Shown: in pieces, positions 5,905 to 49,135 of the stretch | How positions within the stretch are numbered: the stretch's first letter is position 1 | Layout of the letters: each line of letters starts with the position of its first letter | Virus record (IMG/VR): IMGVR_UViG_3300021375_000026 | DNA: 64,000 nt | Strand: one strand, 5' to 3' | Source of the DNA: an uncultured virus (IMG/VR IMGVR_UViG_3300021375_000026) | Taxonomy: Duplodnaviria; Heunggongvirae; Uroviricota; Caudoviricetes | The notes under the pieces: generated by a model | What the model saw: only the letters and a program-made list of their open reading frames with translations | What the model was told of the DNA's origin: nothing | Database searches by the model: none | Position numbers and translations under genes: made by a program

Positions 5905-6612
5905 ATGTTACTAGTCGATGATAGAGAAAACCCCAAAGTAATTAACAAGTTGTTAATGCGTATGGGAGAAAATAACGTAAAAGTATGTAGAATGGTGAGT
6001 GCAGATTATGCTATGGGTACTTGGGGTGTTGAGGCTAAAGAAATTAACGACCTTTTTCGTTCCATTCTTGGTATTGGTCGCAATAGAACTATCGTTTCTC
6101 AGTTGAGAGACTTACAGGATAACTACGACAACCCCGTACTAGTAGTCTATGGTGCAAAGTTAAAACCTTGGGTAGCCACCGGAAGGCCATCAGCGAAACA
6201 AATTGCTACCGAAATGTCTCGTATGAAAAAAGTAAATACACAATTCAAAATGACATTTCATCAAAGATTCCCTAAAATTAAGTATATGGAATTGAATACT
6301 ATGGATGAGTTTGTTGAGTGGTTGGTAGTAAATCACACCCAACTAGGCATGGCTTTCTCAAATCACGATTCAGACACACAACGGGCTATAAAAAAAGGAG
6401 AATTAGACCCTCGTATCGCATTTCTTTCTTCCGTAAAAGGAGTTACACCCACTATGGCTCAAGATTTACTAGAAGAGTTTGGTAGCATACCTAAACTACT
6501 TAGGCTTAGGACTACACAAAAAGCAGTTATGGCTGTCAAAGGTGTGGGTAGACAAAGAGCGCAGGATATACTAGCCCTAAGAGATAACCTAGAAGATGTA
6601 CCACTCAAGTGA
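5905..6612 (+). CDS. ERCC4/XPF-type structure-specific nuclease with C-terminal HhH
   Basis: LLVDDRE, ADY, VEAKEINDL, then VKGVTP...LLEEFGS...VKGVG HhH pair. Confidence 0.85.
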   Translation: MLLVDDRENPKVINKLLMRMGENNVKVCRMVSADYAMGTWGVEAKEINDLFRSILGIGRNRTIVSQLRDLQDNYDNPVLVVYGAKLKPWVATGRPSAKQIATEMSRMKKVNTQFKMTFHQRFPKIKYMELNTMDEFVEWLVVNHTQLGMAFSNHDSDTQRAIKKGELDPRIAFLSSVKGVTPTMAQDLLEEFGSIPKLLRLRTTQKAVMAVKGVGRQRAQDILALRDNLEDVPLK

Positions 6613-27200: not shown

Positions 27201-30200
27201 CAAGGTCGTCTGTAAGAGCATAGTTATTTGCACTAGCCGCTATACCATCTAGTTTACTCTTTAAAGTATTAGTAAAGTTATTTTGTGTAAGACCACCATC
27301 ACCGATAGAATATGTTGTGTTTGTATCAGTAGCGTTTACGTTTGTACCACTTATAGCAAGATTGCTGTTTGCTGTCGCAAATACAATAGCCCCTGCGGAA
27401 TCATCCCATATAAGTAATCTATCACCGTTTGGGTCAGACAAAGATTCTATACCTAAATGACTTAGATTTACGGTTGCATCACCACTTGTAGCACCGCCAC
27501 TTAGACCTGTTCCGGCCACAACGGAAGTAATGTCTCCTGCGCCTGTTCCAAAACCTTGTGCGGCTATGTAATCAAAGACAACATCTCCTGTTACTAAACC
27601 TGCGTTGCCGTTAGCAACTGCACCTGTACCCGATAATGTTGCCGCAGTACCTAAACCTAAATTGGTTCGTGCTGTACCTGCATTGGCTAAATCAGATAAG
27701 TTACTTGTCTTTACTAATTTTTCACCTAATGAAGTAGCGGTTGTTGTAGCAAAGTTAGCATCATCTCCCAAAGCGGCGGCTAATTCATCTAGTGTGTTAA
27801 GTAAAGATGGCGCACCTGTTGTTATCGCTGTTATCGCAGAAGCGTTTGTTGCTACTTTTCCATCCACGTAGGCTTTAATAGATTGTTGACTAGCCACTTT
27901 TGTAGCACTATTAGTAGCCATATTATCTTCGTCTAAAAGGTCGGAAGATATTGCGTAATTATTTGCCGAAGATGCTATACCATCTAGTTTTGATTTAAGG
28001 GTATTAGTAAAATTGTTTTGAGTTAATCCACCATCCCCTACTGAATATTCGGTGTTAGTATCGGTCGATGTAATAGTTACTGCACCACCACTTTCAGAAA
28101 TACTTACATTAGTACCTGCTGTAAATGCTAAGGTTTCACTAGAACCTAGTGTATTGCCACCTGCGGTAATTGTTCTAAAGGTGTTATCATTAGCGGTCAT
28201 ATCGTCAACAACAACATTTATCTTTCCGTTTGTGTCATCATAAGTAGCCGCTACCCTTGTTTCAGTATTGCTAGCGAACATACCACCAACTATGTCTTGC
28301 ACTTGTTCTGTGCTTAACTGAGTATTTGTATTTAAGTCATCCACTACTAAATCTATCGTGCCGTCTCCATCTTGATATGTCGCACTAATTCTAGTTTCTG
28401 TATTAGATGAAAACATAGCACCTACTATATCTTGGACTTGTTCTGTTGATAATTGAGTATTAGTATCTGTTGATGCGATAGTTAGAGTACCCGCAGTATC
28501 GTCGTAAGTAAGTGATACGTTACTACCTGCGGTCAATAAACCATCTATGTAATCTTCAACTTGTTCTTGACTTAACTGTGTATTAGTGTTAGTGTCTGCT
28601 GATGTTATAGTTACTGCACCACCGCTTTCTGTTATCGTTACATTAGAGCCTGCTGTGAAGGCTAATGTTTCTGATGCGCCAAGCGTATTACCGCCTGCTG
28701 TAATGGTTCTAAATGTATTGTCATTTGCAGTCATGTCATCAACGACAACATTTATTTTACCGTTAGTATCATCGTATGTTGCTGCTACCCTAGTTTCGGT
28801 GTTAGAAGCAAACATACCACCCACAATATCTTGTACTGCTTCCGTTGTAAGTGGTTGTGTATCTGCTGTCATGTCATCGACTACAAAGTTAATTCTTCCA
28901 TTAGTATCATCATAGGTTACTCCTATCCTAGTCTCCGTACCTACTAACATAGCCCCAACAATGTCTTGTACCTCTTCGGTACTTAATTGAGTGTTAGTAT
29001 CACTAGAAGAAAGTGTTAATGTTCCTGCACCATCATCATAAGTAGCAGTAACATTTGTTCCGCCTACTATAAGACCGTTGACAAAATCTTCAACCTGTTC
29101 TTGAGTTAATTGAGTGTTAGTATCAGCAGACGCAAAAGTAATTGTGTCGCTTCCTGCTGTTGTAGTAATAGTTACGTTAGAACCTGCTGCAAACGTAAGT
29201 GTATCAGTAGCGGCATCTGCAACTACGTTATCTTGCCCCGATACTGCTACGGTACTGAAAGCATTTTGGTTATTCTCACCACCTGCACCTGCGGCTATCC
29301 AAGTAAAACCTGTTGTTGCTTGGTCATAACTAAGTAAATAATTATCAGTAGGAGAATTAGTCGCTTTAAGATTTGCTTCATCTATTACATTGTCTGCTAT
29401 AACAGTAGCACCATCAGCAGAAGATGTTACTTCACCACTATGGTTAGGGTGAACATAATTATTTGCAGAAGTAGCGATATTATCTAACTTTGTTTTTAAG
29501 GTATTAGTAAAGTTATTTTGTGTTAACCCTCCGTCTCCTACGCTGTATTCAGTATTTGTCGAAACAAAGTTTAGTTTACCGTTGGTGTCATCGTAAGTTA
29601 CAGAAATGTTAGTTTCAGTTCCACCATCGACCATAGCACCAATTATATCTTGCACTTGTTCATCAGATAGTTGAGTATTTGTATTAGTATCGGTTGATGC
29701 AATTGTTACTGCACCTGCATTCTCACTAATAGTAACATTAGAACCTGCGGTAAACGCTAAAGTTTCGCTTGCGCCAAGAGTGTTGCCCCCCGCAGTAATG
29801 GTTCTAAAAGTATTTGTATCAGTAGTCATATCATCGACTACAATATCTATTTTTCCATTTGTATCGTCATAAGTTGCCGCTACTCTAGTTTCTGTATTTG
29901 AGGCGAACATAGCGCCTATAATATCTTGTACTTGTTCAGTAGTTAATTGTGTGTTGGTATCGGTTACTGTATTGGTAAAAGTAATTTTATCTCCGCTACG
30001 TGCAATAGATAAACCCGTACCTGCTTCAAGCACTATATCGTCAGTACCACTAGCACTATCAGTTAATCGAATCTTCTCTTCATCAGCATTGTCGCCATCA
30101 ACAGCAGAAATGCTGTAAGTAGTATTGTTATCTGATGATTGGTCGTCAACTACTAAGTCTATTGTTCCATCACCATCTTGATAAGTTGCAGTTATGCGTG

Positions 30201-32328
30201 TTTCAGTATTTGAAGTGAACATAGCCCCTACAATATCCTGCACCTGTTCTGTGGAAAGTTGCGTGTTGTCGTTGGCTGTCATATCGTCAACTACAAAATC
30301 AATCCTACCATTTGTGTCATCGTATGTTACGCCGATTCTTGTTTCTGTTCCAACAAGCATAGCCCCCACTATATCTTGTACCGCTTCTGTTGTTAACTGC
30401 GTGTTTGTATCTGTTGAAGCAATAGTTAATGTTCCTGCTGCGTCATCATAAGTAACACTTACATTTGTACCTGCTGTGATTACCCCTGCTACGAAATCCT
30501 CAACTTGTTCTTGTGTTAATTGAGTATTTGTATCTGTATCTGTTGGAACAGCCCATGTAAAAGAACCATCACCATCTGAACGTAAAAATTGTGTAGCAGA
30601 ACCGTCTCCGGTTACATTTAATTTACCTGCTGTGATTGCATCATCAGCGATTCTTGCTGTTGCGAATGTACCGCTTGTAATCTTACTTGCCGCTAGGCTT
30701 GGAATATCACTTGCAGAAAGACCATCATCGAGAATGTTTATTTCTGCTTTAGTAGCAGTAATACCTAAGTTTGTTAGAGCGTTGCCCTGTTGTGTAGAAG
30801 TAAGTCCTTGACTATCGGTATCTGTTCTTAATCTGTTGCCTAAAGCAGTAGAAGTTGTTGTCGCATAGTTAGCGTCGTCTCCCAATGCTGCTGCTAATTC
30901 GTTAAGTGTGTTTAATGCTGCCGGTGCAGAATCTACAACCCCTGCAACCTCAGAATCTACATACGCCTTTATTGACTGTTGACTAGCAACCTTAGTTGCC
31001 GAGTTAGAAGCCATATTATCTTCGTCTAGTAAATCTGATGAGATAGCGTAATTGTTAGCACTTGCAGCAACTCCGTCTAGTTTGCTATGGTCTGCATCCG
31101 TAAACACATTTGAATCTGATGCTGATTCTACTAAAGTCCTAATTTCAGCAGCAGTTTGGTCTGCTGTCGCACTTGCTTCTATGGCGTTTAATTTAGTATG
31201 GTCGTCATCAGTAAAGACATTAGAATCAGTAGCAGACTCTACTAATGTTCGTATTTCTGCTGCTGTTTGGTCTGCGGTTGCAGATGCCTCAATAGCATTT
31301 AACTTACTGTGGTCTGCGTCTGTAAATACATTAGAATCAGTAGCGGCTTCGACTAACGCTCTTATTTCTGCCGCAGTTTGGTCGGCAGTAGCACTAGCCT
31401 CTATACCATCTAATTTATTTTTTAATGTTGTCGTAAAACTATTTTCTGTTTGGCTTGCTACTGAAAGGTCTAGTTTACCATTAGTATCATCGTATGTTAC
31501 GGTTATACCACTCTCGGTATTACCTGCAATCATAGCACCAATAATATCTTGCACTTCTTCGGTAGTTAACTGTGTATTAGCAGTCATGTCATCGACAACA
31601 AAATTAATCCTTCCGTTTGTATCGTCATAAGAAACACCAATGCGTGTTTCAGTACCTACAAGCATATCTCCTACTATGTCCTGCACTTGTTCTGTTGTAA
31701 GTTGTGTATTCGTATCTGTACCTGTTATTGTTACTGCGCCCGTAGCACCACTTATAGAAATATTAGTACCTGCTACTATGGATGTTACGCCTGTGTTTGT
31801 TAGTGTTACTGTGCCGGAAGTACCACCACCACCTAAACCTGTTCCTGCTGTTACTCCTTCGATGTCTCCTGTTGCCGCCGCTACTGATGCTAAAACTACC
31901 CAAGCATCTGTACCTGTTTTTCTAATAGTTGCTTTAGCATATTGCGCTAAAGAAGTAGTACCACTAACTGTTACGCCGGATGCACCGGAGAGTGTTATTG
32001 CACCCGCACCTATATTTAGTACGTGTATTTCAGTTAAACCATTTACGAAAGGAACATTAGCATTAGTGGGTATAGTAAGTGTTAATCCACTACCCGAATT
32101 AAAAACAATTAACCTACCTTCATCTTTACGAAGTAGTGTGTAGTCAGCAGTTTTAGTTGTTGCCGGTCTAACGTCAACAGAAGTACCGCCGACAGTCGAA
32201 CCGTCTCCATAGAATAAAAATCCTGCATCTGCATCTTTATACAAATGTTGTGTATGAGGCGTTACTGCTAGTCTTTCACTTTCAGTAGTTAGAAAGATAT
32301 TTTTATTGTCTGTTAATTTTTCTGCCAT
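24259..32328 (-). CDS. Giant repetitive tail/head fibre (2689 aa)
   Basis: About 15 TQLxxEQVQD repeats, three ASATADQTAAEIR repeats, two (L)NTLxELAAALGDDAN fibre motifs, and C-terminal NxAIG-type beta-roll repeats. Confidence 0.85.
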   Translation of the reverse strand: MAEKLTDNKNIFLTTESERLAVTPHTQHLYKDADAGFLFYGDGSTVGGTSVDVRPATTKTADYTLLRKDEGRLIVFNSGSGLTLTIPTNANVPFVNGLTEIHVLNIGAGAITLSGASGVTVSGTTSLAQYAKATIRKTGTDAWVVLASVAAATGDIEGVTAGTGLGGGGTSGTVTLTNTGVTSIVAGTNISISGATGAVTITGTDTNTQLTTEQVQDIVGDMLVGTETRIGVSYDDTNGRINFVVDDMTANTQLTTEEVQDIIGAMIAGNTESGITVTYDDTNGKLDLSVASQTENSFTTTLKNKLDGIEASATADQTAAEIRALVEAATDSNVFTDADHSKLNAIEASATADQTAAEIRTLVESATDSNVFTDDDHTKLNAIEASATADQTAAEIRTLVESASDSNVFTDADHSKLDGVAASANNYAISSDLLDEDNMASNSATKVASQQSIKAYVDSEVAGVVDSAPAALNTLNELAAALGDDANYATTTSTALGNRLRTDTDSQGLTSTQQGNALTNLGITATKAEINILDDGLSASDIPSLAASKITSGTFATARIADDAITAGKLNVTGDGSATQFLRSDGDGSFTWAVPTDTDTNTQLTQEQVEDFVAGVITAGTNVSVTYDDAAGTLTIASTDTNTQLTTEAVQDIVGAMLVGTETRIGVTYDDTNGRIDFVVDDMTANDNTQLSTEQVQDIVGAMFTSNTETRITATYQDGDGTIDLVVDDQSSDNNTTYSISAVDGDNADEEKIRLTDSASGTDDIVLEAGTGLSIARSGDKITFTNTVTDTNTQLTTEQVQDIIGAMFASNTETRVAATYDDTNGKIDIVVDDMTTDTNTFRTITAGGNTLGASETLAFTAGSNVTISENAGAVTIASTDTNTNTQLSDEQVQDIIGAMVDGGTETNISVTYDDTNGKLNFVSTNTEYSVGDGGLTQNNFTNTLKTKLDNIATSANNYVHPNHSGEVTSSADGATVIADNVIDEANLKATNSPTDNYLLSYDQATTGFTWIAAGAGGENNQNAFSTVAVSGQDNVVADAATDTLTFAAGSNVTITTTAGSDTITFASADTNTQLTQEQVEDFVNGLIVGGTNVTATYDDGAGTLTLSSSDTNTQLSTEEVQDIVGAMLVGTETRIGVTYDDTNGRINFVVDDMTADTQPLTTEAVQDIVGGMFASNTETRVAATYDDTNGKINVVVDDMTANDNTFRTITAGGNTLGASETLAFTAGSNVTITESGGAVTITSADTNTNTQLSQEQVEDYIDGLLTAGSNVSLTYDDTAGTLTIASTDTNTQLSTEQVQDIVGAMFSSNTETRISATYQDGDGTIDLVVDDLNTNTQLSTEQVQDIVGGMFASNTETRVAATYDDTNGKINVVVDDMTANDNTFRTITAGGNTLGSSETLAFTAGTNVSISESGGAVTITSTDTNTEYSVGDGGLTQNNFTNTLKSKLDGIASSANNYAISSDLLDEDNMATNSATKVASQQSIKAYVDGKVATNASAITAITTGAPSLLNTLDELAAALGDDANFATTTATSLGEKLVKTSNLSDLANAGTARTNLGLGTAATLSGTGAVANGNAGLVTGDVVFDYIAAQGFGTGAGDITSVVAGTGLSGGATSGDATVNLSHLGIESLSDPNGDRLLIWDDSAGAIVFATANSNLAISGTNVNATDTNTTYSIGDGGLTQNNFTNTLKSKLDGIAASANNYALTDDLASGEITQLQNIGATTITATQWGYLGASSGAITNTDTQLSTEQVQDIVGAMFGSNTETRITATYQDGDGTIDLVVDDLNTDTQLTTEAVQDIVGAMFTSNTETRISATYEDGDGTIDLVVDDMTANTNTNQLTTFTLTGDSGTNQTIAHGNTLDIAGGTGIDTVVGNTDTVTVAIDSTVATLSGSQTLSNKTIAVSQVTELSNLTAAEGEQLENIGSVTISNAQWGYLGAATGAITNTDTNTQNEYAISFVDASNDIRLRLTESGAGSGTQDIMFVAGSNVTLTHTDANNITIASTDTNTNTTYSAGTNISLSGTTFNVDDAFLKNNANDATTGTITAAGFSTTGSITLGGHTFNDIDIGTEFVDTDDHLMSSGAIKEKIESYSYGTGDVTLTGTQTLTNKTLTSPTIATPTITGTLDETGDIDISSLYGRINFKKDSNGNVNNDAIYFINGSDQYAGAVKYFHADNTVRFDANQATQLHISDGAIYPPVDSDVDLGTTSLRFKDTFVDSITVTGEVDAASLDISGDADIDGTLEADAITIGGTAIAAAGTTSITTLGTIGTGTWQGTAIAQAYIADQAINEAKLQVSNNPTNGYVLTAQSGNTGGLTWAEAGGGASEINDLSDAITLSSRNLGLGTNAGVAWVSGANQNVAVGEESGKAITTGDGNISVGAFSLQTATTSSYNTAIGDQAGASATGWRNVMVGSSSGYNITSSDSVFVGYQAGQAATSGLYNVALGSGALNDVTTGNRNIGIGRNAGDGFDTESDNIAIGYDALGGAVAGGEMNVVIGNYAGDAVTSGDGNTLLGHTAGGAITTGSHNITLGYLSGDNLTTGSGNVVIGRHDPASNTGDNQLVISNAKQTSFGGRTWILGNDLSQVNSKVNVVAISSNTTLSNVGEGQVEQSGAIIYWTGGTLTLPYNATVGTQYTIINNTGSAAKPSLNTNGDFLNGTHGNIDDKNSRTYVCLAAANTGGGSPDWWGIG

Positions 32329-39782: not shown

Positions 39783-39849
39783 GTAAAAGACCAAAACAAT
39801 AGAAATTATTATGCTAATACTTATATATCCCTTCAATTTATCCTTGTTT

Positions 39850-41283
39850 ATGCGAAGGGTGCATGGAGGCAAAGACCTCATCGAGAAGTTTGCGAAAGAT
39901 AGAAGTTTTAGTAATATTAGTGAGTTTGCTGAGTTTCTACACGAAGTTGAACCAAAGCGTTCAAAGAATGCTTGGCGTTCTGCCATCCAAAGGTGGATGA
40001 AGGAAGGAAATAGCCCATTTAAGGATAAAGAAGAGTATCATAATGTTGTTAACAACCGAACAAAGGTATATCACGATGAAGCGGCAGATAAATACTTAGT
40101 AGTGATGGAAGCGATAGATGGATTCTATGTAGTGGAGGGTGAAAAACACCGAGCCATGAAAAAAGCATATTCTGAGGCGGGAGGTAACTTAACAATTGAA
40201 GAAATGGCTAGAGAGTTTGAAATGCCGCCTGCTTGGGTAAGTGAATACGTTAGAGTTAACAAATGGACTCACGGTATGCAACCATTTACGGATAAAGAGA
40301 TAGAAGGTAACACCGTTGATGATTTGGTTGACGAAATACTAGCCATGCGTAAAATTGAAATTATTAAGAAGGCAGAAGGTAAAAGATGGAGACAAGTTGA
40401 GAAAGATGCTATGAAATATAACTACTTTAACGAGACAGTCAAAAAAGATTTCTTGGAAATAGCACAAAAGTGGAAACCTGCTTCCGTAAAGCGTACTAAG
40501 GCACAAAAAGAAGGTGATTTTGCCGTCGTACTTTCCCCAACTGACTTACATTTTGGTAAATATGGTTGGGTTGATGAAGTTGGACAAAGTTATGACTTAG
40601 AAGAGGCACGACATAGAGTTTTGACAAAGACCGAAGAGTTATTGAAGAGACTACCTAGTAAACCCGAAAGATTCTACGTTGGTGTGGGGTCTGATTGGTT
40701 TCATGTAGATAACGACGTTGGTACAACCACAAAGGGTACGGCACAAGATATGGCCGCTACGCCTGCACAAATATTGATGGAAGGTTGTGATTTGGCTAGA
40801 CAACATATTGACCTTTTGAGGACTGTTTCTGATGTTGAGTTAATATTTATGGGTGGTAATCACGATAGACATACAAGTATTATGTTAATGATGTACCTTG
40901 ACGCTTATTACAAAGATTGTGAGGATGTAAACGTAGTAGTTTCTCCCGAAATTAGACAATATGTTACATACGGTAATAATTTGATTGGATTTACTCACGG
41001 TGATGGTAAAGTTATGAATAAACTAAATGCTTTGATGGCTCACGAAGAAAGAAGTGCGTGGGGTAAAACATCTCACAAACTTTGGTTTCATGGACATCTA
41101 CATCATCAACAAATGCGAGAAGCGGGTGGTTGTTTGATTATACAACTTCCTAGTCTTGCAGGTGAAGATAGATACCATAGTCGTAACGGATATGTTATGG
41201 CTAAAGCAGGGTTGTCTGCATATATTATAGATAAAGAAGAAGGGTTAATTGGTAGCCTGTTTGCGCCGGTGGTACATGAATGA
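39850..41283 (+). CDS. Calcineurin-like metallophosphoesterase with N-terminal HTH region (start probably 39850)
   Basis: PTDLHFG, GSDWFH, GGNHD, FTHGD, HGHLHH; TATA box CTTATATA ~25 nt upstream. Confidence 0.85.
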   Translation: MRRVHGGKDLIEKFAKDRSFSNISEFAEFLHEVEPKRSKNAWRSAIQRWMKEGNSPFKDKEEYHNVVNNRTKVYHDEAADKYLVVMEAIDGFYVVEGEKHRAMKKAYSEAGGNLTIEEMAREFEMPPAWVSEYVRVNKWTHGMQPFTDKEIEGNTVDDLVDEILAMRKIEIIKKAEGKRWRQVEKDAMKYNYFNETVKKDFLEIAQKWKPASVKRTKAQKEGDFAVVLSPTDLHFGKYGWVDEVGQSYDLEEARHRVLTKTEELLKRLPSKPERFYVGVGSDWFHVDNDVGTTTKGTAQDMAATPAQILMEGCDLARQHIDLLRTVSDVELIFMGGNHDRHTSIMLMMYLDAYYKDCEDVNVVVSPEIRQYVTYGNNLIGFTHGDGKVMNKLNALMAHEERSAWGKTSHKLWFHGHLHHQQMREAGGCLIIQLPSLAGEDRYHSRNGYVMAKAGLSAYIIDKEEGLIGSLFAPVVHE

Positions 41284-41399
41284 GATGGACTTCTGCTAAG
41301 TGTTGGTCGTGTGGGTGGGAAGCCCCACGTATGCAAATGCACTTGGCGGTTGAAGGTAAGTGTCCTTACTGTGGAAAGAAAGATTTACATCCGAGGTGA
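41280..41399 (+). CDS. 39-aa CxxCG/CPxCG zinc-finger micro-protein (not in ORF track)
   Basis: MRWTSAKCWSCGWEAPRMQMHLAVEGKCPYCGKKDLHPR*; ATGA-coupled to the upstream gene. Confidence 0.7.
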   Translation: MRWTSAKCWSCGWEAPRMQMHLAVEGKCPYCGKKDLHPR

Positions 41400-41403
41400 T
41401 ATT

Positions 41404-42912
41404 ATGGGTTTTATGCAAGATTTTTCTATGGAACGTAGTCGAAAAGACATTAAGTATTTCTACCAATGGTTAGGTTATACTTGGGGCGACCACATAGGAG
41501 AATGGATGGAAATGTACGGTGATAGAAAGGGTGCAGAAGTGCATCGTGTTTGTATTATTGCACCACGCGACCATAGTAAGTCTACTACTCTTAGGGTAAA
41601 ACTATTACATCAATGTTTGTTTGAAAAGAAGGCAAATGGTAAACCCTTTACTTGTTGGTTGATTTCTGCGAGTAAAGATACTGCTATTAGAAGATTACAA
41701 GAGATTAGAGAGGACATGAAACAACATCCTCAGTTGTCTAGGTATCTCGACCCGAAAAGAGGTAATAAAACTGAAATGTATTTTACCAATGGGTCTTGGA
41801 TAATGGCTACATCGGTAGGTTCAGCGATTCGTGGTGAACACCCTGCTTGTGTAGCATTTGACGATGTGTTAGTTGATTCTGATGAAATGAATCCTCACAC
41901 TTTACAACAATGGTTTAGGAAGGCAATTTCCCCTATGCTTTCGCCCGGAAGTACGTTTTACGTGGTTGGTACACCTATGTCTATGACTGATTTGTACCAT
42001 ACTGAAATGTTAAGTAAAAAGACTTGGAAAAGTGGTACTTGGGGCAGTATAGTAAACTATGATGAATGGAAATCTAGTGATGGGGATATTGAGCCTAAAG
42101 CACTTTGGCCGGAATACCGTAGTGTAAAGTTTTTGTTAGAACAGAAAGAAGCGATAGGAGACTTGGAGTTTTCGCAGGAATACCTGTGTAGGGTTGTTGA
42201 CGATGACGCTTCGGTATACCCTAACAACTTAATTCGTAAGAATCTTATCATGGAACACACTATACAAACTGATAGGTTAGATAACAACAGATATATTATA
42301 GGATTTGACCCTGCACATGGTCTTGGTAAAGATTACAGCGTAATGATATGTCTTAGACAAGACGAACAAGGATTTATTCATTTTGTAAATATGTGGAGGC
42401 GTAACGATTTCCCACCGGATAAGCAAGCGGATATGTTAATCGAATGGTCTAAGAGATATGGTAACTGTGGAGTAGCAGTTGAGGATGTGGGTTTTCAACA
42501 GATGTACGAAAGTTTGCTTGCACAAAAAGGTGCGGTAGTGGATTATAGACCTAGTAAGGTAGGCAACAGAACACTCAAGCAAGGATTACTAAACAGGCTT
42601 AGAGTTTGGTTTGAGAGAGAGATGATTGCATTTCCTTATGGTGATGATGAAACCCGTAGGATGGTTGAGATTATCCTAGAAGAATTAAGACTTCACGCTT
42701 GGCGTGATGGCGTGATAGTGGACTTAGGTGTTCACAACGATACAGTAATGGCTCTTGCACACGCAATAGACCAATTTACATATAAGATTCCCGATATGCC
42801 GGTAGTTATGAAAACTATGACGGGTGGACAATGGTTAGGTGGTAAAGCCAAAATCAATAGACCCTCTAATACAGGTGTTGGTGGAAGAGTAATGGAGAGA
42901 AGAAGATTATGA
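41404..42912 (+). CDS. terL: Terminase large subunit (start reassigned to 41404)
   Basis: Walker A APRDHSKS, IRGEHP..VAFDD (Walker B), VVGTP, FSQEY, nuclease GFDPA...DYS, HNDTVMALA; GAGGTGA SD. Confidence 0.95.
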   Translation: MGFMQDFSMERSRKDIKYFYQWLGYTWGDHIGEWMEMYGDRKGAEVHRVCIIAPRDHSKSTTLRVKLLHQCLFEKKANGKPFTCWLISASKDTAIRRLQEIREDMKQHPQLSRYLDPKRGNKTEMYFTNGSWIMATSVGSAIRGEHPACVAFDDVLVDSDEMNPHTLQQWFRKAISPMLSPGSTFYVVGTPMSMTDLYHTEMLSKKTWKSGTWGSIVNYDEWKSSDGDIEPKALWPEYRSVKFLLEQKEAIGDLEFSQEYLCRVVDDDASVYPNNLIRKNLIMEHTIQTDRLDNNRYIIGFDPAHGLGKDYSVMICLRQDEQGFIHFVNMWRRNDFPPDKQADMLIEWSKRYGNCGVAVEDVGFQQMYESLLAQKGAVVDYRPSKVGNRTLKQGLLNRLRVWFEREMIAFPYGDDETRRMVEIILEELRLHAWRDGVIVDLGVHNDTVMALAHAIDQFTYKIPDMPVVMKTMTGGQWLGGKAKINRPSNTGVGGRVMERRRL

Positions 42913-43175
42913 GAACAGTATTTGGCCCAAAAAGTAAAAAGACATTATATTTAGACCGTTTGCAGGAGTTAGCAGACTCGGACTATTTCGACGAATGGAG
43001 AACTAACGAGGAAGTTATGTGGAAGGTAAACGAAGTTGTACCTGCCCGATGGACTCAATTGCATTCTTGCGGGGTGCATAAGTATATGCGTAAAATTAAA
43101 CAAGCAGATTCAATGGAAGATAAATACAAAAAGGTCATGGGTAAGAGAGTACGCTATTGGCGCAAAAGGTTATAA
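42909..43175 (+). CDS. Small winged-helix-like hypothetical protein
   Basis: 88 aa, coupled to terL; wHTH-like helix pattern. Confidence 0.55.
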   Translation: MRTVFGPKSKKTLYLDRLQELADSDYFDEWRTNEEVMWKVNEVVPARWTQLHSCGVHKYMRKIKQADSMEDKYKKVMGKRVRYWRKRL

Positions 43176-43337
43176 ATATTTTTTTTCAAAAAAATTGTAA
43201 AAAATTGTTCGTGGTGCTAGGCGGGTATAGGTACGTATATCGGTGTATTTTTGGAACTAAGTGCATAAACTACACTAGGTGTTATACACTACACTTGGTG
43301 TAAAAAACTCACCAAAAAAGAGCCAGGGAATGCTAGA

Positions 43338-43356
43338 CCGAAAACCTTAATAAGGG
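43338..43356 (+). promoter_or_regulatory. Archaeal BRE+TATA promoter for the 43.4-45.2 kb transcript
   Basis: CCGAAAACCTTAATAAGGG is a purine-rich BRE plus TTAATAAG; the first hairpin starts ~25 nt downstream. Confidence 0.6.
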
Positions 43357-43375
43357 GTATGCTAACCGAGGCTTA

Positions 43376-43590
43376 GAGCAGCGTGGCTGCTTGGACTAGG
43401 CGGTAAAAGCGACTTAGTGCGGGAACGGCGAAGCATTGAAAAATGCTTTGATGTAAGATACTGTTCAACCTTGAGTGTGATAGCATTCATCGAGTCGTGG
43501 CTAAAAATATTAGCCCAAGACGAAAAAATGAAAAATGGCCGGAGTCAATCTAGTTATCTAAATTGATAATGACACGCCAAGAAGTAATAA
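43376..43590 (+). ncRNA. Multi-hairpin structured RNA or long 5' leader
   Basis: Consecutive stems: AGCAGC/GCTGCT; ACTAGG/CTTAGT; GAACGG/CTGTTC enclosing CGAAGCATT-GAAA-AATGCTTTG; TTCAT..GTC.TGGCTAA/TTAGCC..GAC..ATGAA; TTATC/GATAA. No substantial ORF. Confidence 0.5.
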
Positions 43591-43664
43591 CCCTTTAATT
43601 AGGTAAGATGTAAGGAATCTCGGAACGCATCTATAAATAAGAAATTGAAAAGGGAGGTATATTT

Positions 43665-43946
43665 ATTTCAGTAATAGAGATAACTATATCACATGACACA
43701 CCTCACGATTTTTTCAGAAGCCTCATTGTTCTGTACCCAACAGGTACATACAAGAGGCCAATTGAAAGTTCAGAGGTGCGAGACTCAAATTGGTTTGTCC
43801 TTACGGTTAGTTCTGAAACATTCGTAAAGCAATTTACAAATGTGGAAGAGCAAACCCCCAAGGTTAAATTAGTTTGGTTCGCTAGGGAAAACGATGCCGG
43901 TCTTATGAAAGATTGGCGTTCTGACCCTGCAAACTACACCCCTTAA
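43665..43946 (+). CDS. 93-aa hypothetical protein with probable non-canonical ATT start (not in ORF track)
   Basis: AGGGAGGT SD 6 nt before an in-frame ATT. Open frame (M)SVIEITISHDTPHDFFRSLIVLYP...WRSDPANYTP*. Stop lies in the palindrome CACCCCTTAAGGGGTG. Confidence 0.6.
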   Translation: MSVIEITISHDTPHDFFRSLIVLYPTGTYKRPIESSEVRDSNWFVLTVSSETFVKQFTNVEEQTPKVKLVWFARENDAGLMKDWRSDPANYTP

Positions 43947-44103
43947 GGGGTGGTCATGTGGTTGTTGTAGTCACAAAGTCTTGTGGCCTTAGCACTAGAA
44001 CATCGGTTAAGTCTAAGCGTAAAAGGGAAAGCGTCTGATTACACAAAGCCCACCCCTCTACATGGGGGGTGTGGCCTAATATCAATAATAGGATGGACAT
44101 ATA

Positions 44104-44187
44104 ATGAATATGAGAGATGAATTAAAGATACTTATAATCACGGATGAATACGAGTATTCTGAGTGGATTATTGACGCTAACTGTTAG
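44104..44187 (+). CDS. 27-aa acidic peptide (not in ORF track)
   Basis: MNMRDELKILIITDEYEYSEWIIDANC*; occupies a cassette slot between two hairpin elements. Confidence 0.45.
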   Translation: MNMRDELKILIITDEYEYSEWIIDANC

Positions 44188-44269
44188 AGTTAGCCGAGAC
44201 GGAAATACGTAAAACTCTAGGGGGGCAGTAATGCCTCCCTAGTAGTAATAATAAAAGGAAGTTAATAAT

Positions 44270-44434
44270 ATGAAGAATGGTAATATAATTCGCTGTATCT
44301 TATGCAATCATTTCATCATGCCTAACTTTGGTTGGACATTAGGTAATAATGCTCAGCCTTTAGCACAAGGCCGATGCTGTGATGAATGCAATAAGTTAGT
44401 TATTGAAGAGAGACTTAGAATTGTCTTAGAGTAA
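44270..44434 (+). CDS. 54-aa zinc-finger protein (not in ORF track)
   Basis: CILC...GNNAQPLAQGRCCDECNKLVIEER, a pattern seen in small phage proteins; AAAGGA SD. Confidence 0.75.
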   Translation: MKNGNIIRCILCNHFIMPNFGWTLGNNAQPLAQGRCCDECNKLVIEERLRIVLE

Positions 44435-44547
44435 ATAATTAATGAGACGGACTAACATAAAATTGTGGGGGGGTAGTGCTGCAACACTACCGCCTCACTC
44501 TTAACTTAACAAGAACACCACATAATTACTAAAGGAGGTAATAAAAT

Positions 44548-44787: not shown

Positions 44788-44896
44788 GGTAGTATTAGAC
44801 GGACTAACACAAAATTGTATAGGGGTAGGGTTTGCATCCTACCTCTATACTCTTAACTAAACAAGATAAATAATTATAATAAAGGAGATAATAAAT

Positions 44897-45160: not shown

Positions 45161-45190
45161 GATTAAACAAGTTAGATAGAAACACGTAAA

Positions 45191-45236
45191 CCCCTCATGG
45201 GATGTCGGCAGGCATCTCATGGGGCGGCCCTTTTTT
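45191..45236 (+). terminator. Hairpin plus T6 terminator closing the mini-gene array
   Basis: CCCCTCATGGGATGTC-GGCA-GGCATCTCATGGGG followed by TTTTTT. Confidence 0.6.
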
Positions 45237-45433
45237 AATTTGTTTTATCTCTATTATAATATCCTGTTATATTAGAAAAAGAAAAAACCTATTAGAATCC
45301 AAATCCAATTATTATTTAACACTAGTGTATATATTACAAAAAAGAAAGGGATTTCAAAATCCAAATCCAAATATTATTTTAGACTCCTGCCCCATTTAGA
45401 GGCAGGAGTTTTATGTATATCCGTCAATATTAA

Positions 45434-45613
45434 TTATATTTCAAAGATTTTTTTATATGGCTTACATAATAATTTTGTATCATCAACAATAATTATCATA
45501 CAATTAATAACATTACCATCATCACTTATACTATGATAACTGACATTATAATGTGCGCCATAATTAGCATATCCATGAAAACAATATTTTGTGAAATCTA
45601 TTTTCGGCCTCAT
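45434..45613 (-). CDS. 59-aa hypothetical protein (not in ORF track)
   Basis: MRPKIDFTKYCFHGYANYGAHY...KKIFEI*; CAGGAGG SD and CTATATATA TATA box upstream. Confidence 0.65.
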   Translation of the reverse strand: MRPKIDFTKYCFHGYANYGAHYNVSYHSISDDGNVINCMIIIVDDTKLLCKPYKKIFEI

Positions 45614-45897
45614 TTTTCCTCCTGTATCTCTACAATATTTCGGAGTAGTAGTCAGTATATATAGTTATTGATTGAGCAATTTCTATTAATATTATAGTAA
45701 TTATTAATATTATTATTACTTATATTAAGAAAACAAAAAACTATTTTAGAATCCAAATCCAATTATTATTTAACACGTGTTAAAAATAAAAAAAAGAAAA
45801 CAAATCCAAATCCAAATCCAAATATTTTATTTTGACAGATTGAGGGAGATATACCCCCTCAATCCTTACGTAAATAATTTATATAATCGATCGAGAT

Positions 45898-46236
45898 TTA
45901 TAAATCAGTTTTTTTCAAGTCGCCATTTTGGTACAATATATCTGCTTCTTCTATTGTCAATTTACTTTTGTTCTGATATTTAGACAACGCTCTATTATAC
46001 AGTGCATCTGAAATACATTCATTATCAAACTCAATTATATCTGAAATATAGGCATAATTTTCATTGGATAACTTTGCTTGTGGTGTTGTATTAACTTGTT
46101 CTTCTAATGCTTCTTCAGACATAGCCGTTATTGGTCTAACATTATTCAAGGGTACATATTCAACGCCGTCTATTTCAATTACTGAACGGTAATAATCTCT
46201 TATTTTTAAGCCCCAATATATTTTATCATAATCCAT
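45898..46236 (-). CDS. Hypothetical protein (likely start MDYDKIYWG)
   Basis: Same CAGGAGGAAAAATG leader and a promoter similar to the 45434-45613 unit. Confidence 0.7.
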   Translation of the reverse strand: MDYDKIYWGLKIRDYYRSVIEIDGVEYVPLNNVRPITAMSEEALEEQVNTTPQAKLSNENYAYISDIIEFDNECISDALYNRALSKYQNKSKLTIEEADILYQNGDLKKTDL

Positions 46237-46613
46237 ACATTTTTCCTCCTGCATCTTCACTATCTCTACGGTTCTACAATTTCTGAGAGTAGGGTTCAGT
46301 ACTTAATACTTTTGATAATGGATTCTTGACAATATAACAGACCCGTAGGGCGGAAAGACTATAAGCCTGCATCTCATATCATAACCCCCACATACACTTT
46401 TTTGTGGTACATAGTGAGAATAGTAGTACCGAAAGACTATATACCCCCATCCCATGTCATAACCCCCCGATAACCTCCTTTATGCGACAAATAACACCTT
46501 TCCCCTAGTGTATAAAAAATAAAAACAAAAATTGAATCCAAAATCCAAATCCAAATTATTTATACTAGGGGGTATATACCCCCCTAGTTTTTACATCTCC
46601 TTTTTCTTAGGGC

Positions 46614-46844
46614 TTATTCTTCTTGTGTTAGACCAAACTCTTCATCGGTCATATATAGGCGGTCTACACGACCACACATATAATTGATGACCCATATAGG
46701 GGGTGCATCTTTACCTAGGCTGTATAGTGTCTCTAAGACACCTGTCATAAATGAGTCTAGTTCTTCTTCACTAGCCCCACTTACATACAATGCTCGCATT
46801 CGTTCTTCAATATATTCTTTCATGGTTTTTGCCTCCATGACCAT
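46614..46844 (-). CDS. Hypothetical protein (leaderless, MVMEAKTMKEY...)
   Basis: GTATATATA TATA box ~20-25 nt upstream of the Met codons. Confidence 0.65.
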   Translation of the reverse strand: MVMEAKTMKEYIEERMRALYVSGASEEELDSFMTGVLETLYSLGKDAPPIWVINYMCGRVDRLYMTDEEFGLTQEE

Positions 46845-47075
46845 GCTAGCAGGGGTTAGTATATATACCCTTCGGTTAAGCAATCTTGATATGATGAAGA
46901 GGTTCGTAGAACGCAACCTTTATAGACCTACTGTGGTACGTTGAGGATGATTAGGATAGGCCGAAGAGAGACACAATTTGCAGTATATTGAAAAGAAAAA
47001 CATAAAGAATAAAAATCCAAATATGAAGAGGGAGGCCGTTGCAGCGACCTCACCTCAACATAATATGGTGGCAAT

Positions 47076-47222
47076 TTATAGTTGTTGTAAATATTCTTTG
47101 AATGCTTTTTCATCCATAAATATTTTTAGTACCTCTTTATGATGAGCATCTAATAACTCGTTCAATTCTCTTATTTCTTTTTCGGTATTTTTAATCTTCT
47201 CTTGTAGGTCGCTTCTGTCCAT
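47076..47222 (-). CDS. 48-aa coiled-coil protein (not in ORF track), leaderless
   Basis: MDRSDLQEKIKNTEKEIRELNELL...YLQQL*; AAGTATATATACCG promoter ~25 nt upstream. Confidence 0.7.
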   Translation of the reverse strand: MDRSDLQEKIKNTEKEIRELNELLDAHHKEVLKIFMDEKAFKEYLQQL

Positions 47223-47253
47223 GTTCTATCGTAGACGGGGTCGGTATATATAC

Positions 47254-47520
47254 TTATTCTTCTTCTTCTCTACATAAATATTGTATATAATTACTAACAA
47301 TTGGTAATTTACCTCTATTTATCCTATTCCAACCATTACCATCTAAAGCATCTAAAAACTTTTCTCTATCAAATCTAGGGTTATCGGCTGATAAATATTG
47401 TATAAAATTACTAACAATTTGATAGTAAAAGTCTTGAGTATTTTCATCTATTATACTATCTTTAGATACTGATGTTAGGCATTCTACTATCATTTCATAA
47501 TCGCTTCTTGTTAGGCTCAT
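47254..47520 (-). CDS. Conserved-looking small phage protein (DNPRFDREKF motif), leaderless
   Basis: MSLTRSDYEMI...ADNPRFDREKFLDA; AAGTATATATACCG promoter. Confidence 0.75.
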   Translation of the reverse strand: MSLTRSDYEMIVECLTSVSKDSIIDENTQDFYYQIVSNFIQYLSADNPRFDREKFLDALDGNGWNRINRGKLPIVSNYIQYLCREEEE

Positions 47521-47764
47521 ATATCTCGGACTGTATGCCGGTATATATACTTATGGTTTTAGTAATCTCGGGCTTATTTGTTATGCAGGCAGGCAGGCAA
47601 AAAAAAGAAAAAATCTCAAAATCCAAAAATCCAAAAAAGATTCAAAATCCAAAAATCCAAAAACCACACTCTAGTGTATATACACAAAAGACAAAGCGTA
47701 CGCTCTAAATCCAAATCCAAAATTATAATTTTTTTGTGGGGTGTAAGACCCCCATGTTTTAGAT

Positions 47765-48349
47765 TTAATATTCTAATATTTCACCCGTCTTAGTGCATCG
47801 GCATTTCATTATCGACCAATCCCATATACTCTCTTGATTGTATTTCTTCCCTAGTGTTAAAGCCGCGTCTAAGTCTTGAACCCATGTTGAAGCATCAACG
47901 TGAATCTGTTCTTTTTCATCTTCCCATATTCCGCCGAATACGTTCAAAGCACAGCCGCCGCCATCGGGCAAGTTATACAATAAGTCGCGGCTTCCTTGAG
48001 AGCCTCGGTAATCATTGAAGTTAGAAGCACTAAACAGTTCATGTTTAACGTCGTTACTCATGTATAAATCATTCAAAAGGTTGTCTTTATAATTCCACTC
48101 TTCTGATAGTCCTATTCTCGGGTAATTATTAGGGTTCTGTATTGCGTCCTCTATTTCATCTGAGGCTACTGAAAATATGTTGCCGACTACACTCATTAGT
48201 GTATCTTCATTCATCGATTTCAATACATCACTTTGTATCTTATCGAATAAGAAGAATGTGGGGCGTTTAACATAAACCCCCACTTGATAGCCCCATCTAA
48301 ATGAGACGCGTTCGTTGTTGTGCATTAGGTAAGTCCCGTCTAACTCCAT
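47765..48349 (-). CDS. Hypothetical protein (194 aa), leaderless
   Basis: GGIWED...DAS.W...LDAAL.LGKKYNQESIWDW; AAAGACTATAAG promoter. Confidence 0.75.
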   Translation of the reverse strand: MELDGTYLMHNNERVSFRWGYQVGVYVKRPTFFLFDKIQSDVLKSMNEDTLMSVVGNIFSVASDEIEDAIQNPNNYPRIGLSEEWNYKDNLLNDLYMSNDVKHELFSASNFNDYRGSQGSRDLLYNLPDGGGCALNVFGGIWEDEKEQIHVDASTWVQDLDAALTLGKKYNQESIWDWSIMKCRCTKTGEILEY

Positions 48350-49135
48350 AACCTTACGACGTATAGGGGGCTTATAGTCTTTTTGTTTTTATATAATACG
48401 TTGAAATTAGTCGGAAAATCAACGAAAAAAAAAGAAAATAAAGAAAATCCAAAAAATAATGAAAATCCAAAATCCAAATGAAAATCCAAAATCTAAAAGA
48501 TTATAAACCCCCATCTCATCTCAAACACGGGGTTGGGTACGGCATAACACACACACTCTAGTGTGTACTATACAAAAATAAAAACGTGTGTCCGAATCCA
48601 AATCCAAATATGCTTATATACTTATGGGTGTAGCATTCTCACTTGATTTGTGAATGTAATATAACAAAGTATATATACCGCCATCTCATCTCAGGCACGG
48701 GGTGGACTGCGATTACCTCCCAACCCCGTTATTATTATTCGTGTCTAAGACGGGCTGCGGGTTTATAGTCTTTGCGAGGTGGTACTCTCTCGACGCTTGT
48801 GATTCACGATTCATAATGATTATAAACCCCCATCTCATCTCAGATTAGGCTAGGTCATGGCGGCTATTGAATAATCGTAAAGGGAGGTTTGTATTAGGGT
48901 TAAAGTAAATGCGATTCTATCTCTATTATACAGGTAAGTCAATCAACAGATTTCGACTTTGACGCTTGTGATGCGTAGATGGCAACCTTTTTACGTGTGG
49001 GTGTCCTCAGAGGCCTTGATAGGTATGTTAGAGGGTCAATATCATAGGCGACTTATTTCAACCGTAATAACAACCCCATCAATCGAGGTTACTTTTCCCA
49101 TAACTATAAGTACCGAACCCGCGTATCACGGCTTA

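Follow-up and report, generated by a model that had tools for sequence, protein, structure and literature searches.

The put RNAs of phage HK022 bring about processive antitermination in bacteria, and EAR is likewise bacterial; the 5' untranslated region (UTR) of ompA is a 5'-terminal stem-loop that stabilises its message, and the RNase III sites among the T7 early genes are inter-gene processing hairpins. GOLLD and ROOL are large orphan noncoding RNAs (ncRNAs) of phages and bacteria. In archaeal viruses structured regulatory RNAs are scarcely known; the viruses of abundant ocean archaea are known only from metagenomes, and their early gene control is almost uncharted. On the cellular side, archaeal L7Ae controls mRNA translation through kink-turns (k-turns) in the 5' UTR, according to the portion of the report available to us (PMC5539422). 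Here we describe a conserved structured RNA encoded on the plus strand at positions 43338-43660 of a 64,000-nucleotide stretch of DNA (the window), which holds the greater part of the genome of a marine tailed virus that has not been cultured (IMG/VR record IMGVR_UViG_3300021375_000026). The element lies downstream of the large terminase gene (terL), at the head of a series of very small genes. It constitutes a new and narrowly distributed RNA family, found so far in one marine viral clade. The reading that we prefer, with about even confidence, is that of a modular structured 5' leader that acts in cis and carries protein-binding loops, including a kink-turn-like site.

The evidence for an RNA-level structure comes from base-pair covariation. 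The pairs of helices P1 to P4 (Table 1) were written by hand on an alignment of 17 full-length sequences (A6) and then counted in cells, each of which stands for a sequence and not for an independent event. Standard pairs fill 97.2% of the 472 cells, as compared with 22.7-40.3% when the 3' partners are slid by 1-3 columns, and both-sided changes are seen in 18 of the 28 pairs (105 cells). The covariation score was 0.573, a value that none of 500 shuffles reached (0.186 ± 0.019). A measure of further pair types gave no support (27, with a shuffled mean of 31.0; 494 of 500 shuffles were as high). In an earlier alignment of seven rows, 96.5% of cells were paired and both-sided changes affected 14 of 29 pairs. 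Helix P5, which MAFFT misaligned, was counted by a script from fixed ends: 100 of 102 cells pair over the first six pairs, compared with 20-42% when shifted, and at positions 3 and 4 A-U and U-A are swapped together.

The kind of mismatch identifies the molecule. Among 476 cells, 60 are G.U and one is A.C, and because the 60 G.U cells would be mismatches on the other strand, the structure belongs to the plus-strand RNA and not to DNA palindromes. A DNA-level element beside terL (a packaging site, a replication origin or a set of protein-binding palindromes, with the hairpins as DNA inverted repeats) would suit the position directly downstream of terL, the palindromic repeats just upstream (43269-43301) and the iteron-like AATCCAAATCC repeats 1.6 kb downstream. 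DNA palindromes would, however, treat both mismatches alike, the compensatory changes keep the pairing as the sequence drifts, and the asymmetry of folding energy favours the plus strand, so that we disfavour this explanation as very improbable.

An initial annotation of this locus, made from the letters alone, had proposed a densely structured, ORF-free RNA, a novel viral ncRNA or regulatory leader. Its hairpins all proved on inspection to be present at the coordinates given, and the structure is conserved in relatives through the compensatory changes described above. The minimum free energy (MFE) of the plus strand of 43338-43660 is -84.2 kcal/mol, compared with -69.2 ± 5.0 kcal/mol for dinucleotide shuffles (z -3.01, 0 of 100 as good), which bears out the claim of dense structure; the minus strand gave z -2.27. 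For the refined RNA (43375-43637) z was -2.54, with two of 200 shuffles as good. Open reading frames (ORFs) of 37-49 amino acids (aa), called with translation table 11, do overlap the element, but each of the six frames has at least one stop in all 17 full-length relatives and none is open throughout, so "ORF-free" holds in the relevant sense. Because stops occur in every frame of all 17 sequences, the element is noncoding.

A scan of the whole window with Rfam 15 (4227 models, including those for tRNA, signal recognition particle (SRP) RNA, RNase P RNA, riboswitches, ribozymes, packaging RNA (pRNA), IMES and GOLLD) yielded no match at gathering scores; at E ≤ 10 nothing fell within 43338-43660, and ARAGORN found no tRNA or transfer-messenger RNA. 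This agrees with the annotator's failure to recognise a tRNA, SRP RNA, RNase P RNA or known ribozyme, and together with the folding energy and the covariation it supports the proposal of a novel ncRNA or leader. RNAs of the phi29 pRNA type accompany a packaging ATPase that has no nuclease domain. Here there is no Rfam match to pRNA, and the neighbouring terminase has a Terminase_6C RNaseH-like nuclease domain.

From its 5' end the RNA consists of hairpins Ha, Hb and Hc, followed by P1 to P5. Six of the seven pairs of P1 change on both sides around a stretch (T8 G9 A10 T11 A12 G13) that is invariant in 17 of 17 sequences. In P2 three of seven pairs do so, CCCAAG and CGAAAAA being invariant; its apex, GGCTAA-AAATA-TTAGCC (43499-43515), tops a longer interrupted stem whose internal loop has, in most relatives, an additional base on its 5' side (3 x 3). 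Changes on both sides are found in all four basal pairs of P3 and in four of its apical pairs. P4 is weakly supported, its sole both-sided change occurring in one relative (L170; loci are denoted by L numbers).

The 5' domain, Ha to Hc, takes at least three forms among the relatives and could not be aligned across types by MAFFT and RNAalifold, and the script written to find the Ha hairpin was noisy. The support for these three hairpins therefore consists of single-sequence folds and of visibly different stems at the same place, rather than of a covariation count. Most of the 21 relatives folded singly show a hairpin at Ha, with stems as different as GGCUGC/GCAGUY, CCCUCG/CGAGGG and GAGUGC/GCACUU. 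The folds of L007 and L010 are different here; for L002 and L013 folding began too far upstream, as the promoter pattern had been missed in them, and of these two only the L013 fold has the hairpin. At Hb, relatives of the window type carry the loops GAUAAAG, GAAAAAG and GAGAAAG on differing stems (UUUGC/GCAAA, AAUCCU/AGGAUU), and the L013 type has another, K-loop-like hairpin in this place. The outer helix of Hc changes from GAAC/GUUC to GACC/GGUC in L011 and L136.

Two tertiary or long-range contacts were considered and rejected. A CCGAG/CUCGG pairing suggested by RNAalifold has its 5' partner in the spacer between promoter and start, where it is absent in four relatives (L003, L009, L015 and L136); it was rejected also because CUCGGA is the P5 loop. 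Kissing of the P1 loop with GUUAUC (the P3 apex) or GCUAUC (Hc') is, by eye, not conserved across types.

Table 1. Features of the element and its surroundings, in order along the window.
Feature	Position	Strand	Basis or remark
Structural genes (tape measure, tail tube, portal)	6.6-39.5 kb	minus	
Metallophosphoesterase/exonuclease	39811-41283	plus	
Large terminase (terL)	41311-42912	plus	
88-aa ORF	end at 43175	plus	downstream of terL
Conserved block GGTGCTAGGCGGG...TATTTTTGG	43184-43260	plus	just after the T8 run that ends the terL operon; blastn
Direct repeats ACTACACTnGGTGT, each with the palindrome ACACnnnGTGT	43269-43282, 43288-43301		35-70 nt upstream of the promoter
BRE/TATA-like promoter CCGAAAACCTTAATAAG = CCGAAAA + CCTTAATAA	43338-43354	plus	promoter function predicted
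Predicted transcription start	43375-43376	plus	~26 nt from the TATA box centre
Ha, 5'-terminal hairpin GAGCAGC-GUG-GCUGCUU	43376-43392	plus	MFE folds; AGCAGC-GTG-GCTGCT at 43377-43391
Hb, ACTAGG/CTTAGT, 7-nt loop GNNAAAG (GUAAAAG here)	43395-43418	plus	MFE folds
Hc, GAACGG/CUGUUC around CGAAGCAUU-GAAA-AAUGCUUUG (DNA: CGAAGCATT-GAAA-AATGCTTTG); GNRA loop, G.U pair	43423-43466	plus	folds
P1, 7-bp hairpin, invariant UGAUAG loop region	43472-43489	plus	94.1% of cells pair
P2, GUC/GAC, internal loop GU/CAA, GGCUAA/UUAGCC	43494-43521	plus	both helices 100% paired
J2/3, A-rich conserved linker GAAAAAAUGAAAAA	43522-43535	plus	alignment A6
P3, basal UGGC/GCCA, apical helix, kink-turn-like loop; TTATC/GATAA at 43554-43569	43536-43579	plus	covariation
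P4, short hairpin CCU...AGG, preceded by conserved AGAAGU	43592-43603	plus	three pairs, 100% paired
P5, AGAUGU...GCAUCU, invariant CUCGGA in the loop (43619-43624)	43606-43632	plus	script count
CUAUAAA	43631-43637	plus	invariant in 17/17; CTAAAAA in L019
Shine-Dalgarno site GGGAGG	43652-43657	plus	sequence; similar sites 5-11 nt before other starts in the window
ORF-A, 93 aa, ATT 43665 to TAA 43946 (start likeliest)	43665-43946	plus	protein conservation
Probable operon end: GC-rich hairpin, then T6 and further T-runs	45186-45240	plus	predicted

The relatives were gathered through terL, a search with which gave 79 viral loci at 65-100% identity. In these the region after terL is a mosaic (blastn); some close relatives keep all of it, and others have its middle replaced or deleted. 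A covariance model of the core (helices P1-P4, 43471-43607) recognised the window itself together with 16 of the 79 loci (E ≤ 6.5e-7), and in all of them terL is about 90% or more identical. L019 gave a weak match (20 bits) and is, by eye, a real partial copy. L008 and L017 end before the element. The other 60 loci, with terL at 82% identity or less, produced no credible match to the model (rows in L031, L053 and L061 had E of 1.5-4); among the more distant relatives, L022 has unrelated sequence at the homologous place. Of 40 metagenome stretches picked out by a stricter DNA pattern, 26 proved real (E ≤ 5.5e-8), and the same pattern picked 13 stretches from 185,579 species genomes, none of which matched the model (best E 0.36). 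With a loose DNA pattern 44 stretches were found in IMG/VR, and none of the 28 that were not already known was real. After removal of identical copies there are 22 distinct sequences: 17 of full length, four without P3-P4 (L005, L011, L152 and L019) and one cut by a contig end (L160), the last five being left out of A6.

Seven of these 13 genome stretches are Flavobacteriales loci (L174, L175, L177, L179, L180, L181 and L183), four of them from Winogradskyella or Algibacter, which match the RNA pattern over an identical length of 62 nt. They were rejected as relatives, the covariance model giving no match, and are probably chance hits or an unrelated conserved site. In the part of the literature covered, no paper that mentions magroviruses spoke of noncoding sequence or RNA, and broader searches there found no such RNA described.

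The virus itself is magrovirus-like and probably has an archaeal host, a call made because of the matches of its PolB and terL and its content of an ERCC4 nuclease and a glycosylase. The best full-length matches of PolB are to haloarchaeal tailed viruses (24% identity, 94-99% coverage), and the widest match of terL is to Halobacterium phage phiH. The window encodes PolB, a short nuclease with ERCC4 and HhH domains, a pyrimidine-dimer (Pyr_excise) glycosylase, a portal, terL, a tail tube and a tape measure. Almost all magrovirus viral operational taxonomic units encode PolB, DNA ligase, an ERCC4-type nuclease and a DNA glycosylase, as stated in the section of the report at hand (PMC10160649). 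Three of these four (PolB, the nuclease and the glycosylase) were recognised in the window and no DNA ligase was. Sigma-70-like sites are not enriched in the window (six found, 8.7 expected). In a protein atlas the ERCC4 nuclease fell in viral clusters only and gave no clue to the host. A blastn comparison of 43176-44270 with 50,697 phage records, a tblastn search of the portal against known phages, and the nearest virus record (G001, a 39-kb fragment) gave no match.

The deletion variants reveal how the element is built. When P3-P4 are present, ORF-A (four sequences) or ORF-B (13) follows directly in 17 of 17 cases; when they are absent neither does (0 of 4). L005, L011 and L152 lack the whole stretch from P3 as far as the next gene; the junction differs in each, and P2 is joined without a gap to the ribosome site of the small gene that follows. 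The CGGAGG of P3 has itself been turned into this site in L152. In L019 P2 is joined to P5 before an unrelated ORF. The head (Ha, Hb, Hc, P1 and P2) is kept in every member. Given these variants and the co-occurrence with the ORFs, we regard Ha-P2 as the constant front of the operon and P3-P5 as the untranslated part of a removable gene cassette. A micro-ORF of 27 aa (MNMRDELKILIITDEYEYSEWIIDANC) lies at 44104-44187 and is the leading gene of the operon wherever the P3-P5/ORF cassette has been lost; L005, L011 and L152 conserve it, as do further relatives (L009, L013 and L007 among them).

The ORF-A protein is conserved in the window, in L002 and L003 and in three database proteins (53-89% identity); only four homologues were found. 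No ATG, GTG or TTG start is conserved among them, and the starts annotated in databases are three different ATGs farther upstream. In one relative a single inserted base shifts the upstream frame and TTT ATT TCA is kept. The sole start candidate common to all ORF-A relatives is ATT 43665, 7 nt after GGGAGG, and since no canonical start is conserved and the relative with the insertion keeps this context, initiation at a non-canonical AUU appears likeliest. ORF-B (41-45 aa, acidic, ATG start) stands in the place of ORF-A in most relatives and was found only on the same contigs. Neither protein belongs to a known family in Pfam or PHROG. The AlphaFold model of ORF-A is of low confidence (predicted local distance difference test score 66.5), and Foldseek found nothing in the PDB at E ≤ 0.001 (best E 0.055), an outcome that neither supports nor excludes RNA binding.

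At the other end of the element, the family has three unrelated promoter cassettes: CCGAAAGCCTTAAKWA; a run of ATATATATATATA (L011, L136 and L146); and CCAAAACCTTTAAGTA (L170). Each has a TATA-like box roughly 25-30 nt before Ha, and the homology between relatives starts there; between the window and L146, similarity begins only at TTAGAG (43373). This recurrence gives indirect support to the earlier assignment of a B recognition element (BRE) and TATA box. In archaeal promoters about 26 nt separate the TATA box from the start, and the arrangement fits an archaeal-type promoter whose transcript would start a few bases before Ha. No T-run lies between P5 and the Shine-Dalgarno (SD) site or ORF in any member. 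Because a TATA-like box precedes Ha, no T-run comes before the SD site and ORF, and the deletion variants fuse P2 to a ribosome site, the element is best read as heading an mRNA. No RNA run containing the stretch was found among sequencing runs, and three marine metatranscriptome contig sets had no RNA contig on it, the contigs that did cover it coming from one data set of unrecorded kind; this says nothing about expression either way. The initial annotation had thought so long a leader anomalous among leaderless early genes; the description as leaderless fits some genes, such as the minus-strand gene ending at 47520, but genes of the same operon have SD sites and upstream hairpins of their own.

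We propose that the element, transcribed from the plus strand, is a 5' leader of ~290 nt that opens the first small-gene ("cassette") operon after terL, with a modular build in which the constant head Ha-P2 would be followed by cassette-specific P3-P5 that come and go with ORF-A or ORF-B. The 5'-terminal hairpin and the chain of helices would protect and organise the early transcript. The kink-turn-like loop of P3 and the invariant UGAUAG and CUCGGA loops would be protein-binding sites, and their occupancy would set the stability, processing or translation of the first ORF, which in the window would have only a weak AUU start behind its SD site. Host L7Ae would be the obvious candidate for the protein that binds the kink-turn-like loop. 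The data above establish the RNA-level structure together with its strand, conservation and position; from them we infer the transcription start, the read-through into the ORF, the binding of protein and the regulatory outcome.

The conserved parts of the element could instead belong to a stand-alone, trans-acting ncRNA or ribonucleoprotein (RNP) of ~260 nt (43375 to ~43637), released by processing or ending before the ORF, which would then have its promoter at CTATAAA. We consider this possible, on the doubtful side. Such an RNA might, for instance, act on a host factor (L7Ae is one candidate) in the manner of a decoy or sponge, or partner the adjacent small protein. Loops and linkers are invariant while stems covary, as in RNP-forming ncRNAs, and P5 might be the hairpin that ends the RNA on its 3' side. 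The invariant CUAUAAA is similar to TATA-like boxes found elsewhere in this virus (GATTATAAACC, GACTATAAGCC) and lies 34-38 nt before the start codon (hand count, six relatives); we read it either as a single-stranded motif of the RNA or as a second TATA box, lacking a BRE, that serves the ORF. A precedent exists in OLE RNA, a large ncRNA with a kink-turn bound by a dedicated protein, as the accessible part of one report describes it (PMC9723947). Against a separate RNA, the CUAUAAA box is without the A-rich BRE of the other promoters here, the conserved SD site would fall outside a transcript begun ~26 nt after this box, and the deletion variants join the head straight to the ribosome site of the next gene. 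Nor is there, between P5 and the ORF, the T-run that is the usual archaeal termination signal. For these reasons we retain the cis-acting leader as the preferred reading.

One of the proposed protein-binding sites is the P3 loop, in which CGGAG (43540-43544) stands opposite nAUGACAC (43568-43575). On the 3' strand the apical helix is followed by nAU (n is A in two, G in four and U in 11 sequences) and then by invariant G, A, C, A and C; the opposite strand runs C, G (U in L146), G, A and then into the apical helix. The four G/A bases and the loop residues L2 (A) and L3 (U) are invariant in 17 of 17 sequences. Box C/D small RNAs have terminal C (RUGAUGA) and D (CUGA) boxes, internal C' and D' boxes and guides of 10-12 nt within about 50-70 nt. 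The present RNA is ~260 nt long, its non-bulged strand reads CGGA (CUGA only in L146) and its bulged strand AUGACAC, not RUGAUGA, and no second box pair is in register.

A standard k-turn has a bulge of three nucleotides, after which G.A and A.G pairs come on the 3' side, with a Watson-Crick canonical (C) helix 5' of the bulge, according to the part of a review available to us (PMC5061560). The P3 loop shows this bulge and the G.A/A.G arrangement as a pattern match, and its C helix covaries at pairs 78-99, 79-98 and 80-97, with 5-8 both-sided changes each. The 3b.3n position is C-G in 16 of 17 sequences and C.U in L146. A Watson-Crick pair at this position prevents folding in metal ions alone, as the consulted excerpt of one study has it (PMC4382518), and all 3b,3n variants tested folded upon L7Ae binding, as stated in that same part of the review (PMC5061560). 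The P3 loop lies between the TATA-like box and the SD site, which would place it in the 5' UTR unless CUAUAAA is an internal TATA box. No L7Ae-like domain was found among the 70 ORFs of the window scanned against Pfam.

In eight relatives (L013, L015, L016, L134, L137, L138, L005 and L152) Hb is replaced by GCC-G-GA-UUnGU-GA-A-GGC. We take this sequence to read like a K-loop, in which case it would presumably be a second site of the kink-turn family besides P3.

A bolder version of the protein-binding scheme, which we think unlikely, is that the RNA, folded at the start of the early transcript, recruits L7Ae of the host or further host factors; in this way it would either reprogramme the RNA polymerase or ribosome of the archaeon in favour of the early operon or titrate L7Ae from host RNPs, with P3-P5 being a portable control cassette that travels with small anti-host genes. 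If true, the reprogramming of polymerase or ribosome would make this the first archaeal counterpart of phage antitermination or translation-control leaders.

The same invariant nucleotides raise the question of a riboswitch-like sensor, in which the conserved junctions would bind a small molecule and switch the downstream ORF. Stems vary while junction and loop nucleotides do not, the RNA lies directly upstream of the SD site, and kink-turns occur in at least seven riboswitch structures, as given in the available text of a survey (PMC4316175). The helices, however, are strung in series and do not form a compact multi-helix junction, no alternative pairing of the SD site is conserved across the variants (by eye), modules are gained and lost in a way that an aptamer would not tolerate, the downstream genes encode tiny proteins without known family and not metabolic or transport functions, and no riboswitch was matched in Rfam. 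We therefore rate a sensor as quite improbable.

Several observations weigh against a cis-acting leader with a kink-turn-like protein site. The family is narrow, being restricted to viruses with terL 90% or more identical, and its sequences are closely related, so that many of the counted cells represent few events. The host is deduced indirectly; terL has no relative in the 185,579 species genomes. The closing pair at -1b.-1n is an invariant U.G (pair 77-100, 17 of 17), where the two k-turns named in the part of the review cited have C.G (PMC5061560), and the noncanonical (NC) helix is irregular, with an A.C and one extra C after 3b.3n before the basal helix begins. The site is called kink-turn-like from its sequence pattern only. 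It lies ~80-110 nt upstream of the SD site, far for simple steric repression, and no consistent anti-SD pairing was found. The invariant CUAUAAA just before the SD site could be a second TATA box, which would make the ORF mRNA independent of the RNA. Finally, the start site, the read-through and any processing are steps that we infer only.

After the 88-aa ORF comes an ORF-poor stretch and then the run of very small genes, which extends to ~45.2 kb. An inter-gene element, GAGACGGAnnAnACnnAAAA (GAGACGGA...hairpin), occurs in it three times (44198-44243, 44442-44514 and 44794-44866), each copy having a hairpin of 12-14 bp whose arms covary between copies and lying 25-45 nt before the SD site of a small gene. 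These elements are candidate processing or stabilising sites of the cassette operon. A bacterial terminator scan did not call the probable operon end at 45186-45240.

With such an arrangement the RNA might act in cis on RNA polymerase, as a processive antitermination or polymerase-modifying leader that allows read-through of inter-gene hairpins and T-runs. It does sit at the very 5' end of a ~1.9-kb small-gene operon, the genes are parted by the conserved hairpin elements (at ~44198, 44442 and 44794), and the head Ha-P2 is kept even with the first cassette deleted. Yet the inter-gene hairpins have no T-runs after them and need not be terminators, no likeness to put or EAR and no Rfam family was found, and we know of no antitermination RNA of this kind in archaea, nor of a processive antitermination leader for archaeal RNA polymerase. 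We hold this function to be improbable, and a leader that governs its own transcript through bound proteins continues to be the account that we favour.

Other features surround the promoter. The ACTACACTnGGTGT repeats upstream of it look like candidate operator sites; their number varies, with one copy in L009, two in the window, three in L010 and none in L015-type loci. The block at 43184-43260, a possible terminator or protein site, is kept in relatives too distant to have the RNA (L020-L041, ~80-82% terL identity). A promoter-like unit, (CG)AAAG-AYTATAWA-CCCCCATCTCATCTCA, is present in five copies at 46345-46489 and 48483-48852 (CCGAAAG with TATA-like boxes), two of which stand in tandem without an ORF behind them and may give short noncoding transcripts. 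The region 45260-48620 is dense in iteron-like AATCCAAATCC repeats, with up to nine copies per family; among them stand GTATATATAC-type boxes and small genes of either strand, and the region may be an origin or an early-promoter region. In the structural module there are two giant minus-strand ORFs, of 2353 aa (6605-13666) and 2689 aa (24259-32328), the first of which has no Pfam match.

The narrow distribution of the element limits its immediate impact. It is a cleanly supported new RNA family with a definable anatomy (a promoter, a 5' hairpin, invariant loops, a kink-turn-like site and a module that travels with a small gene), and it offers both a handle on gene control in archaeal viruses and a seed alignment for the family. 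Among large ncRNAs it resembles OLE, with its pairing of a kink-turn and OapC as set out in the part of the report seen (PMC9723947), in its conserved multi-helix build, its candidate kink-turn-type protein site and the small gene next to it, which occurs together with part of the RNA. It differs from OLE, GOLLD and ROOL in that it is ~260 nt long and not 600-800 nt, is confined to a single narrow clade of viruses, would be joined directly to an mRNA and has no homology to them. With the HK022 put RNA and EAR it shares the position of a structured RNA that starts a multi-gene operon and could act in cis on the whole of it, and it is unlike them in sequence and structure.

With the hairpins of the ompA and T7 type the likeness is that a hairpin lies within a few nucleotides of the predicted 5' end and that each gene of the operon has its own upstream hairpin. 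The element is, however, far longer and more ornate, strictly conserved loops would be needless for a stabiliser, and the nucleases concerned would be archaeal. The L7Ae-regulated leaders of archaeal mRNAs (l7ae and nop5-fibrillarin), as far as the available part of the work by Daume et al. (2017, PMC5539422) describes them, differ in other ways: here the motif is set within a ~260-nt series of eight hairpins, ~80-110 nt before the SD site, and it is viral, belongs to the gene of a tiny protein, closes its C helix with U.G and has a hypothetical relation to L7Ae. What the two would have in common is a kink-turn-type internal loop in an untranslated leader, an archaeal setting and, with the Watson-Crick pair at 3b.3n, a fold that plausibly depends on protein.

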